The position numbers were made by a program. Positions 9,001 to 15,000 of a DNA stretch of 64,000 bases are shown piece by piece. The stretch comes from a virus. The stretch's first letter is position 1. Every line of letters starts with the position of its first letter. The stretch covers positions 1-64,000 of IMG/VR virus record IMGVR_UViG_2900881136_000004. The stretch is one strand, 5' to 3'.

Positions 9001-12000
9001 CGTGTACGGCAGCGTCGACTTCGCGATCGTGAAGGCGAACGTCGACATCACGGTCAAGCTCCTGCTGCAACTCACGTACGAATCGTATGTGTCGATCACG
9101 ATCACAGTGATCGCCTCGGTCGACGTGTCGGTTAGCGTGAAGATCAACCTCGGGTTGTTCAAGATCAGCATCTCGTTCTCGTTCTCGATGCGACTGAAGG
9201 AGACCTTCACGATCGATAACCGGGGCGCCGCGCCCTGGCTCGGCGATGGCCGCAACGTGCGCGGCGTGCTGCGTCTGCCGGTCGAGCATCGGCTCTCCGG
9301 CTTCGCGCGCGCGCAAGCGCGCGACAGCCTGCTGGTGAGCGCGCCGAACTGGGGCAACCTGCGGCCGGACGGCGTGACGGACCTGTCGGGCTACCTCGTG
9401 CCGGGGCTCACCGCGGCGCGCGACGAATGGACGCCGCAGGGCGAACCGGCGAACCAGTTGTCGTGCTGGGTCGCGCTGCTGCTGATCGAATCCGTGCCGC
9501 CGGCTGGGCAGGATGCCGGCGCGAGCAAGCTCAAGGCGGCGGGAAGCGCGCCCGACAGCTCGTTCGAGGCGCTCGCGAAAATGGTGCTGCGCTGGGCCAT
9601 CGCGGCCGTTCAGGGGCCGATGACGCCGGACGAGGTCGATCGATGCCCGGTTCCCGCGACGCTACTGGACTGGCTCGCGGACGAAGTGCTCGTCAGCACC
9701 GGCGACGATCCGACGCCGATCCCGCTTGACGCGGTGCAGGCGTTCCTCGACACGCATTTCCGATTCAATCTGCGCGTGCCGCCGACCGATCAGGATGCGT
9801 CGGCCGATACCGCGTATTTCCCGGCGCCGCCGCAACTGCGCGTGATGATTCCGCCGTACGGCAACGACTACCCGGGCGTGCAGTACACCCTCGGCAGCTA
9901 TAACGCGCTCGGCGAAAACACGCTGGCCGAACTGCGCGCATGGTTCGACCAGCTCGCGGTGCAGGTGGAGCGCGAGCAAGCGGCGAACGGCGCGGCGGCG
10001 CGGGCATTCGTGGAAGAAGCGCCGCTGTCGATGGCCGGATGGATGTTCTCCGACTACTTTCTGCTGCTCGCCCGGCAGATGGTCAAGGCCGCGCAAGACG
10101 CACTGCGCGACTTCAAGTACGCGCTCGACGCGAACGAGACACCGGACGACGTCGTGAGCTGGGTGAACACGACCGGTCAGTTGAACGGGCTGTACACGCT
10201 GAACGACGTGTTCGGTGCCAATGCGCTGCACGCGCTCGTCGCCGAAAAAACACTGACGATCGGCGTCACGAGCTCGATCAGCCTGGCCAAGACCGGCCAG
10301 ACCTTCACATCGCTGGCCAAGGCCTTCGACGACGCGCTGCCCGCAAGTGCGATCGCGTCGGCCAATGCGGCCGACGCTGCGCTGCTGCAGCCGGGCGCGA
10401 CGATCACTTACCCGGGCTTCGATCCGTACACGAGCGTTGCTGGCGACACGCTCGTCAGCATCGCTGCGCATTACCAGGCGAAGCTCAACGATCTGCTGGC
10501 CGACTCAGATGTGCTCGACGCGGCCGGCATGCTGCGTATCGGCGCGAGCGCGCTCATGCCGTACACGGCGTACACGGCGCTCGCGACCGACACCTTCGCG
10601 TCGGTCGCCGCGCTGCCCGTGTACGCCGGCGGTTTCGGCGCGGCCGCACTGGCCACCGCGAATGCGGGCCGCAGCGTGCTGCTCGAAGGCGTGAAGATCG
10701 AGTATCCGGACAAGGACGCGTACACCGTGCAGCCGCGCGACACACTTGGCGACGTTGCGAACGCGTTCGGCGTAACCGTGTCCGATCTGCTCGCGACCAG
10801 CGCGGTGCTGACGCAACCCGGCCTGCTCGCGCCGGTCGCGTCGCTTACGGTTCCGGCGTTCCGCTACACGACGCAGCAAGGCGACGATCTCGCGCAAATC
10901 GCGGCGCGCTTCGGCGTGACCGTCTCGGTGCTGGCAGACCAGCCCGCCAACGGCACGGTAGCCGGGTTGTTCGACACCGGCGACACGCTCGACTTGCCGC
11001 ACCTGCCGCAATTTCCGTTGGCCGAACTGCTCGCCGAAGCGCAACGCTCAGGCATGCTGCAGCACCTGTCCGGCATCGCGAGCAGCTATACGATGCACGG
11101 GCTGCGCTTCCCGACGTCCGGCCCGACCGGCACGGGCGGGCAATGGTCGATCGTGCCCAACGAGATGGGCATGTGGGTGCATGACGTGAACGGCACGTTG
11201 AAGCTGCCGCCGCAAGCCGGGCTCTATGCGCTGACCGGTCAGCAATTCCCGCTGCCCGCACTCGGCGCCGATCCGTTCGCGGCGACCTTCGACAGCGTGG
11301 CCGGCGCCGGTTCGTCGTGGCTGCGCTTCGTCGACGGCAACGGCGGCCCGACCGACCATCTGACACTGTCGGTCACGCCCGGCACGCCCGACGCGACGCG
11401 TATCGCGCAGGTGACCGCCGCCGCGAAGACACGGCTCGTCGTGCCGATGGATATGCTCGGCGCGGGCAAGATGTACGATACCGCCCTCGCGACCTATCCG
11501 TTCACGTCCGCGTTGCAGTGGCTGAGCACGCACACCGTCGCGCTGCCTTATGGCCAGCCGCCGGCCGGCGTGCAGTCGCTGCGCGTGTGGCAACTGCCGG
11601 GCGCGCTCGCGGCGCTTCCCGATCCGGCCACCCATGCGGTGAATCCGCGCTTTGCACTGCGGGTGGCCCGCTACGACGATGCGACGGGCGCCACCGAAAC
11701 CACCGGGGTGGACTCGTACGGATGGGCGTCGACCATCGGCTTCACGGTGCGGCGCATTCCGCCGGTAGCGGGCAGTCCCGCGTCCGTCGACACGTACGAG
11801 GTGGTCGGCGCGAGCGGCGCTGCAATCGTGGTGCTCGAACAACTGTTGAGCCAGGTGCAGGCGGACGATTCGGCCTACTTCGGCCTGAGCGTCGGTTTTG
11901 CACCCGATAGCGCAACGGGCGGCGGCGAAGGCGTGCAGACCGGCGGCGCGGCGAGCGTCGTGTTCGGCATCGCGCAGGTGAACCTGTCGACGGAAACCCG

Positions 12001-15000
12001 TCCGCCTGCCGGCGCCGCATTCGCGGCACTGCGTGAAACGGCCGGCGAAACGCCGCAGCTCACGCTGCTCAATTCGCCGTCGGAGTTCGTGCGGCTGCTG
12101 TGGGAAGCGAGCATCACACGCTCGGGCGGCTTCTTCCTGTACTACTACGATCGCGCCGCTGGAGGCGGGCTGCCCGATCGCATATTCAACGACCGCAACG
12201 AGGCATCGCTGACGTTGATCGTGCTGTACGCGAAGCCCGCGGCCGTAGACGATCAGGACCGCGTCACGAATTACATGAATGCGGTGGTGACGACCGACGC
12301 GCTGGATACCGGCAACGCGGTGCTGTTCGCGGAAGCGGCGCCGGTTCCCGCCACCGTCACGAGCGGCGCTGGCGAGACGCTCGCGTCGCTCGCCGCGCAA
12401 TGGTATTCGGACGAGGCGGATATCGCGGAAGCCAACGCGAACGTCGCGCTTCGCGCAGGCGCGCTCGTGCGCGTGAGCGAAGGGGTCTACCAGGCGCCGC
12501 CGGGCGGCATCGCGCTCGCGCAGGTCGCGAGCCGCTTCGGCACCACGGTGCAGGCGCTGAACGACGCCAATCCGCTGTGGGGCGGCTTGCCCGACCCACT
12601 GCCGTTCCCGGCCGCGATCCGCGTACCGGACCTCACGCTCACTGCCGGCACGAGCGCGCACACGGCGTCGCTCGCGGATATCGCGGGCTGGTACGGCGAG
12701 CCGGTCGACGCGCTTGCTTCCCATAACGCGCGGGTGGCCCAGCTGTTCGCGGCCGGCGTGCCGCTCGTGATTCCCGGCGGCCCGCGCGTGCGCTCGGCTG
12801 CGGTGCAGCCGGGCGTGCAGGCGCTCGCCGCGCTGCGTCCGGCGCCGCCGCAAGTGGACGGTACATCGCCGGACTACGGAACGGAACTGCTGCTGAACAA
12901 CTTCAGCCTGTTGAACCAGCAGGTATACGGCAACGTCGACTTCCGGCCGAGCGATCCGCCGGGGCTGCCCGCCGGACCGACAACCAAGGCTCCGGAAGAA
13001 AACGGCAACGACAAGGTTCGCACCGTCGTTCCGGCAGATCAGGTCGAAGCGTGGAACTTCAGTCAGGCGCTGCCTTACGCACGCTTTGCGAAGCACGTGC
13101 CGCAAGCGCCGCGCGCGGCGGTCGCGCTGCCGCCCGCAAGCGCCAGTCCGTATTTTGGTGTCGGCGGCATACTGCAGATCTCGTTTGCGTGGCAGGACTA
13201 CTACGGCAACGTGCTGTCGACGCCGCTGTCGGACCCACTGGCCGGCGATGCGGCGCCGTACAACGACGCGCCGCTGCTCACCGGCTACACGGATCCGCTG
13301 GTGTCGCTGTCGCAATGGCCGTCGATTGCTTCGAACTGGCAGGTGCTGCCCGGCAGCGGCGGAGCGAACCCGCGGCTGAATATCGAGTTGAGCTTCGATC
13401 CGAGCCGTTACCAAGGCTTGCTGCAGGCATCGGCGGCGACGCAGACGACGATCACCGTGGTATTCACGGACGCGCTCGACGCCGCATCGGTCGGCGAACT
13501 GTCGCGCTGGCAACTGGTGCCGGGAACCGTCGATTCGGCGTCGCTGGCCGCGGATGGAAAAACCGTCACGCTGACGGTGCCGGCGCTCGACGACGACCTG
13601 CGCTACACAGTGATCGCCGCTGATATCAAAGCGCAAGCGAGCGACATGCGCTACAGCGGGCAGGCGTCGTTCGACTGGCCAGACAATCCGGTCACGCGCA
13701 GCAGCACCGTGCAACAGAACGCGTCGCAGGACCTGCACGTCTATACACAGCTGTACTACCAGCTCACCGATCCCGCCGGAGTCGATCTGTCGGCGCAGTC
13801 TTCGTTGCTCGCGGACGCGCACGGAGCGCCGGGCAGCGTCGCGTATGCGCCGGCCGCCGTCGACAAGCTGATGGACTGGCTGTTCGGCACAGCCGGCGCG
13901 GCCTCCAGTGTCTATGCGTTCGTGCTGGACCGCTCGAAGTTCCAGAGCGTTGCCGTGCCGCCCGCCGCCGGGTTGCCGCTCGACGTGGACGTGCCACCGC
14001 AGCAGGTGAACACCGCGCAGATCTTCCCGCTGTGGACATCATTTACGATGACGCGCGCGCACGGCCCGGTGCTGCCGGGGCTGGAGACGGTCGCCGGCAT
14101 TCGCAGCGCGAGCACGCGCGTCGCGCCGCTGCAGGATGCGCTCGGCGCCACCGGCGGCACGCTCGGGCTCGTTACGTTCGCGACCGGTTTCGAACAGGCG
14201 CTGTCGACGCCGGGCAGTGTCCGGCTGAAGGTGGCGACCGGCGTCGATCGCACCGCGCCGCCCGCCACTGGAGCGGCCAGCACGGTCTGGGCGGTACGCG
14301 TCGGGCTCGCTGCCGGCAAGGCGATCTCGTATGCGATCGCCGACGCGGGCAACCCGGCCGTGTTCGCGCCGCAGCCGGCGAGCAACCGGTTAATCAGCCG
14401 AACGCAAGTACCGATCTACGACTACACGACCGGCAAGGGCATCTCGTCGACGCCGTCACGCACCACCGATTTCACGGATGTCGATCTCGACACGTGGTGC
14501 GCGCAGGTGTTCGCCGCCGTCGACGACGTGCTGACACCGCAATTCACCGCGCCGATGCAGATCGTCGGCGAGTTGAAGTCCGCTGATTATCTGCAGTCGA
14601 TCCTCGACGGCAAGAAGGGACTCGCGACGGTCGCGAAGCTGTGGATGATTCCGGTCTTCGCGGGGGAAACCTCCGACCCGTCCGCCGCGCGCGAAGCGTT
14701 TTACCAGCAACTGCTGGTGCGATTGTCAGCCGCATACACGACGCGCGCCGCGGTGGAGTTCCACGCGAACGTGACCGCCGACGTGATCGAGCCCGCCGCG
14801 GATCAGCCGCCGCGGCTGTTTGGGCCGGTCACGCGGAACGGACCGGTGTTCGAGGCCGCCAATGTCGACGGACAGGCACTGACCACCGTGTTCCTGCTGT
14901 TCAGCGACCCGATGGACCCGGTCACCGCCGGCAACATCGAAAACTACGCATTGAGCAGCGGTGCCGGCGTGCTGACGGCGACGGTCGACCGCGGCACGGT

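Follow-up and report, generated by a model that had tools for sequence, protein, structure and literature searches.

A conserved internal double array of LysM modules in the giant protein of a mobile four-gene cassette

A protein of 4131 residues, encoded by an uninterrupted open reading frame (ORF), is carried by the stretch of DNA analysed here (positions 1 to 64,000 of the IMG/VR virus record IMGVR_UViG_2900881136_000004, hereafter the window). Deep inside this giant protein lie two groups of repeats that resemble LysM domains. The locus raises the question of whether these repeats are genuine LysM modules, how they came to be arranged in the middle of such a large protein and what they might hold. 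A first reading, made by inspecting the DNA letters without database searches (the sequence-only reading), had counted seven units as four plus three with a spacer of ~450 residues, had regarded an internal double array as unusual and had proposed a peptidoglycan-spanning scaffold. The repeat units are confirmed by profile comparison as true LysM modules. They form two arrays (residues 1971–2216 and 2659–2808), which are indeed internal, and the spacer between them measures 442 residues. It is proposed, with a probability of roughly one in two, that the two arrays are a multivalent clamp that holds the giant protein on a wall made of an N-acetylglucosamine (GlcNAc) polymer.

The Pfam LysM model (PF01476) matches the whole giant protein with 75.2 bits (E=3.7e-21; cut-off 20.9 bits) and residues 1905–2830 with 89.6 bits (E=1.2e-25), which by sequence places the repeats in the LysM domain family and bears out their first identification. 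Nine candidate segments of ~50 residues were also scanned singly against the same cut-off. Two of these pass alone, residues 2113–2162 (u4, 31.5 bits) and 2162–2212 (u5, 23.5 bits). Four lie below the cut-off, namely residues 1969–2017 (19.4 bits), 2015–2064 (17.7 bits), 2657–2705 (14.8 bits) and 2702–2753 (14.4 bits), and the remaining three, including 2062–2113 and 2751–2802, give no match in the single-segment scan. Profiles of the units of the second array, built from 41 homologues and run against the PDB chains, match solved LysM structures with E values of 1e-8 to 1e-11. The u6 profile matches the Thermus thermophilus NlpC/P60 protein (4uz2) at 2.8e-9 and Ecp6 at 7.7e-5; the u7 profile matches the same two structures at 6.5e-11 and 3.8e-9, respectively, as well as LytE and YkuD; and the u8 profile matches LytE at 1.7e-8. 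Similarly, residues 2116–2210 of the first array align with the tandem LysM of 4uz2 (E 3.7e-5), and the family profile aligns the second array with the three LysM repeats of LytE. When the full-length family profile is compared with all PDB sequences, LysM chains are the sole matches.

An iterated hidden Markov model (HMM), seeded with the two units that pass the Pfam cut-off and extended inside the family, identifies eight units in the giant protein and none elsewhere along its 4131 residues. This lack of stray matches offers a useful internal control against profile drift. The first array consists of u1 to u5 (residues 1971–2017, 2016–2065, 2064–2115, 2114–2165 and 2162–2216) and the second of u6 to u8 (residues 2659–2708, 2705–2759 and 2756–2808). 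The earlier division into two arrays therefore stands, with the seven units, as four plus three, becoming eight as five plus three; the unit that had been missed is u1 (nucleotides 10283–10423), just 5' of position 10395, where the first array had been taken to begin. The unit length of 47–55 residues and the tandem register are compatible with a LysM module of ~44–50 residues. Profile–profile comparison links seven of the eight units to one another with probabilities of 80–99%, and u1, u2 and u3 are joined to other units by links of 94–99% (u3, residues 2064–2113, has hhalign values of 98% with u1 and 94% with u8). A possible degenerate unit, u0, precedes the first array. Its profile resembles that of u6 (hhalign 87%), with values below 60% for the remaining units and no PDB LysM match, and its standing as a ninth unit is unproven. 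The features of the giant gene and of its surroundings are collected in Table 1.

Table 1. Position and character of the features discussed in the text (positions are those of the window)
Feature	Residues	Position	Strand	Remarks
Small partner A	230 in total	1..693	+	two ~100-residue beta-rich repeats; no signal peptide
1192-residue partner	1192 in total	811..4389	+	no known domain; immediately 5' of giant gene
Giant ORF, uninterrupted	4131 in total	4373..16768	+	GC content at third codon positions (GC3) 0.84; holds LysM arrays
Hypervariable N-terminal third	1–1320	4373..8332	+	family identity 10–30% versus 35–75% downstream
Tandem beta repeats, ~120 residues each	621–1301	6233–8275	+	family-profile self-hhalign 96.8%, offsets ~120 and ~245 residues
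Ultra-conserved beta core	1321–1620	8333..9232	+	51–79% identity across phyla; ratio of nonsynonymous to synonymous substitution rates (dN/dS) 0.12–0.15
Linker	~1620–1965		+	between beta core and LysM array 1
Possible degenerate LysM-like unit u0	1916–1966	10118..10270	+	Y..L....T...IV.WVN......T...LF..N..H.L..G..L.I
LysM array 1 (cluster 1), u1–u5	1971–2216	10283–11020	+	five units
LysM u1 and u2	1971–2065	10283..10567	+	lineage-specific tandem duplicate of u3–u4
LysM u3, u4 and u5	2064–2216	10562..11020	+	ancestral triple of cluster 1
Central domain between arrays	2217–2658	11021..12346	+	40–49% identity to family mean; many invariant residues
LysM array 2 (cluster 2), u6, u7 and u8	2659–2808	12347..12796	+	
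C-terminal part	~2810–4131		+	two optional immunoglobulin (Ig)-like inserts
Ig-like (Big_5) insert	3021–3089	13433..13639	+	Pfam Big_5 E 1e-6; SWM_repeat weak
Second Ig-like copy	3489–3561	14837–15055	+	paralogous to first insert, hhalign 72%
Small partner B, paralogue of A	244 in total	16759..17493	+	signal-peptide-like N-terminus MPLARRDRALCAFVAAPLLWGLLAGVAAAQA
Insertion-sequence remnants		17520–18233	-	just 3' of cassette
Insertion-sequence remnants		~22880–23650		just 3' of cassette
Insertion-sequence remnants		27966–29378	+	just 3' of cassette
Siphovirus-type prophage		~31000–56600	-	terminase, portal, capsid, tape-measure, phiJL001 gp84-like hub, Rcc01698-like tail proteins

The arrangement of the arrays can be followed back through the family. 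Unit u1 is paired with u3, as noted above, and u2 with u4 (hhalign 99%), and the alignment columns of u1–u2 are filled in only ~40% of homologues; on these grounds u1–u2 is a lineage-specific tandem duplication of u3–u4. The second array aligns as a block to u3–u5 (hhalign 95.8%, E 7.5e-9), and the ancestor therefore had two paralogous triples. The ancestral layout was three plus three units around a conserved domain of ~440 residues, the second triple being a duplicate of the first. Among 97 full-length representatives two arrays are almost universal and three plus three is the modal pattern. LysM is present in 53 of 55 homologues, and in an exhaustive search of representative sequences the LysM–spacer–LysM module always lies in the middle of the protein. 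The layout that had seemed unusual does differ from a terminal anchor joined to a hydrolase, but within this large family it is the norm. Three distant relatives of 3600–4300 residues (P0165, P0183 and P0199) carry 21–26 LysM-like units in three arrays, far more than the one to six that LysM proteins are usually said to have. The pattern TL..IA..(Y/F)G......L...N......L..G..L.(I/V)P is kept across phyla in u5–u8, and purifying selection is seen on both arrays in a Burkholderia pair (dN/dS 0.36–0.42) and on cluster 1 in a Methanosarcina pair (dN/dS 0.21).

LysM modules recognize GlcNAc-X-GlcNAc and contribute additively to binding as independent beads on a string, and a bacterial LysM domain has been found to bind chitin more tightly than peptidoglycan (PMC4083421). 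Each unit of the giant protein would, as in known LysM modules, bind a GlcNAc-X-GlcNAc stretch of a glycan strand, and tightly abutting units would sum their affinities. Both arrays together would clamp the central domain, and hence the entire giant protein, to a polymer of GlcNAc, which may be peptidoglycan or chitin. A multivalent glycan clamp is favoured because the canonical pattern is kept across phyla and the arrays are under purifying selection; the data themselves show the LysM identity of the units, the history and conservation of the arrays, the cassette and its missing export signals, and glycan binding, the choice of glycan and the site of action are what we infer.

Comparison with characterized LysM proteins shows what is shared and what is not. 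In the tandem-LysM hydrolases (T. thermophilus NlpC/P60, pdb 4uz2 and 4xcm; Bacillus subtilis LytE, pdb 8i2e; Enterococcus faecalis AtlA) the modules likewise abut in twos and threes. However, these are proteins of a few hundred residues with a signal peptide and a terminal array attached to a catalytic domain, whereas the arrays of the giant protein are internal and doubled and no export signal is present. Pfam and NCBIfam searches of the window protein and of 55 homologues find no catalytic domain of a type such as NlpC/P60, GH25, GH73, amidase, SLT or GH18. The giant protein is therefore not a LysM-anchored secreted hydrolase, as both the catalytic domain and the signal peptide are missing. 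Blocks of three LysM modules are also known from Ecp6 (pdb 4b8v), the structure matched by the u6 and u7 profiles, and from plant LysM receptors, the Pfam models of which give weak matches in many homologues; chitin is thus a plausible ligand of the arrays. In contrast to the giant protein, which is prokaryotic and has no cysteine in its LysM arrays (six occur in the entire chain), Ecp6 and the plant receptors are small, secreted, disulfide-stabilized eukaryotic proteins with compact packing.

Several observations weigh against a glycan clamp. Only two units reach the cut-off of Pfam itself, u3 finds no match outside the family in the PDB profile search and is connected through in-family profiles only, and the canonical Asn or GDT is absent in several units (e.g. 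RDTL...LLATS in u4). An AlphaFold2 model of residues 1905–2830, made from a four-sequence alignment, is unusable (predicted local distance difference test score 35). In the Methanosarcina pair cluster 2 has a dN/dS of 0.70 over 145 codons and may perhaps be under relaxed selection. LysM folds occasionally serve without glycans, and a kinetoplastid mitoribosomal protein is among the PDB matches of the cluster 2 unit profiles. Finally, the giant protein may have an intracellular role. An alternative is that the units are degenerate LysM-like folds that have lost glycan binding and act as structural or protein–protein spacers in a huge intracellular protein. With six of the eight units below the Pfam cut-off, some without the canonical motif residues, with no export signal, with a mitoribosomal precedent for the fold in a non-glycan context and with arrays that persist in an archaeon lacking peptidoglycan, such an alternative has a basis, but it is considered very unlikely. 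The canonical pattern is conserved across phyla in u5–u8, the profiles match bona fide glycan-binding LysM structures with the E values given above, and the expansion to 21–26 units resembles selection for avidity rather than a fixed spacer.

If the arrays do clamp a glycan, the next question is whose wall it belongs to, and here the genes around the giant gene are informative. The giant gene is one of four that together constitute a horizontally mobile cassette: a small beta protein, a protein of ~1190 residues, the giant protein and a second small paralogue. The start of the giant ORF overlaps the upstream gene by 17 nucleotides, and in essentially every locus with sufficient flanking sequence a homologue of this 1192-residue partner lies immediately 5' of the giant gene. 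Small partner A is 69% identical to a 231-residue gene product of Burkholderia sp. FERM BP-3421, and 47 of 80 loci have homologues of the small protein 5' of the cassette. Partner B overlaps the end of the giant gene by 10 nucleotides, and the same position and overlap are annotated in FERM BP-3421. A survey of neighbours across the loci detects no other conserved neighbour and no secretion-system genes. The partners give no match in Pfam (32 copies of the 1192-residue protein and 60 members of the small-protein family were searched), nor does the 1192-residue family profile match the PDB. Matches of the small-protein profile to antibody V domains (E>=0.004) were set aside as noise at the level of motifs; at best they hint at a beta-sandwich. 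Homology between the 1192-residue and giant proteins, hinted at by single-linkage clustering, was not confirmed by direct BLASTP.

Signals for export are largely missing from the cassette. In an alignment of 25 genomes a conserved domain of the giant protein sets in no more than ~40 residues after the start codon, and no hydrophobic N-terminus is seen; there is therefore no room for a signal peptide. The family consensus of the 1192-residue partner likewise has no signal peptide, and transmembrane helices are predicted in neither large protein. One small paralogue behaves differently. Of the 27 loci with two small copies, 12 have a signal-peptide-like or lipoprotein-like N-terminus on the distal copy, and a signal-peptide-like segment is never found on the copy adjoining the 1192-residue gene. 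In Burkholderia the exported-type copy is located 3' of the giant gene, and in five other loci (L057, L058, L066, L076 and L079) it is located upstream.

The scaffold suggested by the sequence-only reading must be judged against these data. It would be an exported giant protein fixed by both arrays to the peptidoglycan of its own producer and spanning the wall, or, in a variant, an envelope-crossing conduit of repeated beta modules conceptually like the AsmA/TamB-type bridges. Bacterial LysM domains usually bind the wall of their own cell (PMC4083421), and in some lineages one of the small paralogues is exported, as its signal-peptide-like segment indicates. However, the giant and 1192-residue proteins have neither a signal peptide nor a membrane anchor, no conserved secretion-system genes lie nearby, and an identical architecture is found in diderms, in monoderms and in Methanosarcina. 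Members of the last genus have neither peptidoglycan nor an outer membrane. The patchy distribution, driven by horizontal transfer, is also typical of an accessory function and not of envelope housekeeping. A scaffold on the producer's own wall is accordingly thought unlikely. For the multivalent clamp, the bound wall would more often be foreign, such as that of a competitor or prey or the surface of a fungal or invertebrate host, than the producer's own. A foreign wall is favoured because carriers have all types of envelope, because they include an archaeon without peptidoglycan and because the large proteins have no signal peptide. An ecology of this kind fits the carriers: Mycetohabitans rhizoxinica, an endosymbiont of fungi, has the cassette on a conjugative plasmid, and it occurs also in Chitinophaga, Streptomyces, Myxococcales, Chromobacterium and Aquimarina.

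The family is large and widely scattered. When one genome per species is scanned with a degenerate pattern of the most conserved 310 residues, at least 106 species-level relatives are found. Their bacterial hosts include Clostridium, Acidobacteriota, Eremiobacterota, actinomycetes, Bacteroidota, Cyanobacteria, Myxococcota, Alpha-, Beta- and Gammaproteobacteria and Spirochaetales, and two Methanosarcina species represent the archaea. The family spans diderms and monoderms, at least a dozen phyla in all, and extends into archaea, with intact colinear ORFs of 3700–4500 residues in ~60 loci. An exhaustive search of 1.84 billion representative sequences gives at least 218 clusters at E<=1e-30 and revealed full-length relatives, whereas word-indexed protein searches had returned fragments only. 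The fragments arise because frameshifts break homologous giant genes: on two long-read metagenome contigs from ENA (L001 and L002) the homologue is split into many ORFs by frameshifts, which are probably assembly errors.

The closest annotated relative comes from Burkholderia sp. FERM BP-3421; it is encoded on plasmid p1 and labelled 'LysM peptidoglycan-binding domain-containing protein' by PGAP; in other sources members are labelled 'LysM repeat protein' or 'hypothetical protein'. The relationships of the beta core do not follow those of the hosts. The best matches to the core of the Burkholderia gene in the window are in Eremiobacterota, Acidobacteriota, Nonomuraea and Clostridium (73–79%), whereas among Proteobacteria the copies of Rhodopseudomonas, Chromobacterium and an uncultured gammaproteobacterium reach just 61–65%. 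This greater closeness to distant phyla indicates horizontal transfer. The gene has the character of an accessory trait that can be transferred and is often plasmid-borne, which argues against a general role of the producer's own peptidoglycan as ligand.

The giant protein contains two regions of very different conservation upstream of the arrays. The first is the hypervariable N-terminal third (residues 1–1320), which is 36–47% identical in the Burkholderia pair as against 65–88% for the rest of the protein, and 27–45% as against 74–88% in the Methanosarcina pair. The synonymous rate (dS) is also raised, to 1.6 in the Burkholderia pair, mainly in residues 1–560 (0.5–0.8 elsewhere), and to 1.8–2.8 across the entire region in the Methanosarcina pair (0.2–0.65 elsewhere). 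The partner proteins remain ~70% identical while this third diverges. On plasmid pBRH02 of M. rhizoxinica the gene is split, with a protein of 1114 residues that matches residues 30–1163 and a second of 2614 residues that matches residues 1182–4126 and retains three plus three LysM units. Divergence and split at the same boundary thus argue for a swappable N-terminal module on a conserved, LysM-bearing body, and the N-terminal third looks like such a module or like an arms-race region. At its start (residues 1–560, positions 4373–6050) the family consensus contains 'R..V....G.GHQASTVN.L.RL' and later 'VFEGQNTA.LA.N.G.PY'. These motifs are reminiscent of GT-B glycosyltransferases, namely of their first beta-loop-helix and their sugar-nucleotide motif; this is a lead only, Pfam being blank in 41 members.

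The second region is the beta core (residues 1321–1620), which is rich in glycine and aromatic residues and has the identities listed in Table 1 from Burkholderia to Clostridium and Methanosarcina. For an accessory protein spread by horizontal transfer this is unusually strong conservation. The predicted model of the core has six antiparallel strands of ~20 residues, with an aliphatic and aromatic face opposed to a face rich in Ser, Thr and Gly. Its structural neighbours, all weak, comprise membrane barrels together with gasdermin, perforin-2 and complement in their pore forms, and Foldseek searches of the PDB and BFVD give nothing significant (E>=0.013). An outer-membrane beta-barrel was rejected, as the Foldseek matches are not significant, a signal peptide is missing and the family also occurs in monoderms and archaea; typical barrel strands are moreover far less conserved than this segment. 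An origin from a phage or phage tail was likewise rejected, since tblastn with the core finds no match in 50,697 phage records and the PHROGs matches are through LysM only.

From these two regions a more specific form of the glycan clamp can be drawn, in which the cassette would be a multi-subunit toxin or attack complex with the core as a pore or translocon, the N-terminal third as effector or specificity module and the LysM arrays as the means of docking on the peptidoglycan or chitin of the target. The model of the core, amphipathic and with weak neighbours among barrels and pore formers, is compatible with such a role, and the N-terminal third, which diverges sharply beside conserved partners and can be a separate gene, would suit an effector. 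The distribution, which resembles that of horizontally transferred genes, lies in antagonistic or host-associated taxa and on plasmids. A functional analogy, and only that, may be drawn with the Tc (ABC) toxins, which are also very large, signal-peptide-free proteins encoded in compact operons, horizontally transferred, often on plasmids, and spread like the cassette among soil, marine and host-associated bacteria. However, VRP1, TcA/TcB-binding, RHS and neuraminidase-like domains are not found in the cassette proteins by Pfam, NCBIfam or PADLOC. Membership of the Tc, RHS or polymorphic toxins was rejected on the lack of these family domains and on the position of the variable part, which is N-terminal and not C-terminal. 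More generally, library and PDB searches give no homology to a known toxin, pore-former or secretion component, the Foldseek matches of the core are below significance, no immunity-like gene is identified and no mechanism of release is known. The core is also more conserved than is usual for pore-former hairpins; the membrane-inserting hairpins of known pore-formers are usually less conserved than this segment. Docking on foreign walls, perhaps within such a complex, accounts for more of the data than a wall-spanning scaffold does, although the structural analogy is weak; the toxin complex in full is regarded as possible but doubtful.

The rest of the giant protein offers few matches to known families. 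The central domain between the arrays evolves under a dN/dS of 0.28–0.33 in the Burkholderia and Methanosarcina pairs and has no match in Pfam or the PDB. The Ig-like inserts of the C-terminal part are confined to a minority of homologues (occupancy 0.4–0.7). Outside the LysM units and these inserts the protein has no match in Pfam, NCBIfam, PADLOC or PHROGs, and Pfam applied to 41 N-termini and 21 C-termini of homologues finds sporadic Ig-like inserts and nothing more. The GC content of the giant gene reaches 68% (positions 10001–14000), compared with 60–63% over most of the window. This could fit a foreign origin, with a high-GC coding bias as an alternative. Antisense ORFs within the giant gene (e.g. 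11048..13822, minus strand) were discounted as high-GC artefacts.

Beyond the cassette the window contains insertion-sequence remnants and a prophage. The remnants include an ORF for an rve-type integrase, and an IS110-like stretch shares 95% identity with a B. pseudomallei plasmid. In a further ORF an SPFH/Band-7 domain is followed or preceded by a truncated rve integrase in one frame, probably a fusion or disruption artefact. A link between the cassette and the prophage or a contractile injection system was rejected, as the prophage is of an ordinary siphovirus type and such neighbours do not recur in other loci.

The LysM label of these proteins was already known from public automated annotation, and a literature search found no publication that describes the family. 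What is new is the conserved internal double LysM array within a giant protein that is otherwise uncharacterized and belongs to a mobile cassette of four genes. LysM modules are well understood and not new in themselves. The arrays are the sole interpretable handle on this cassette, and they point to a GlcNAc-polymer surface as its place of action. Tentatively, the cassette may be an undescribed mobile attack or adhesion machine of bacteria and archaea, with the core as pore or conduit, a recombining N-terminal third for variable specificity or effector activity, and LysM docking on the chitin or peptidoglycan of a target cell; no characterized homologue is known for any of its four proteins. 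If it is indeed a new surface-docking pore or toxin complex, it would be a widespread new player in microbial antagonism and host association.

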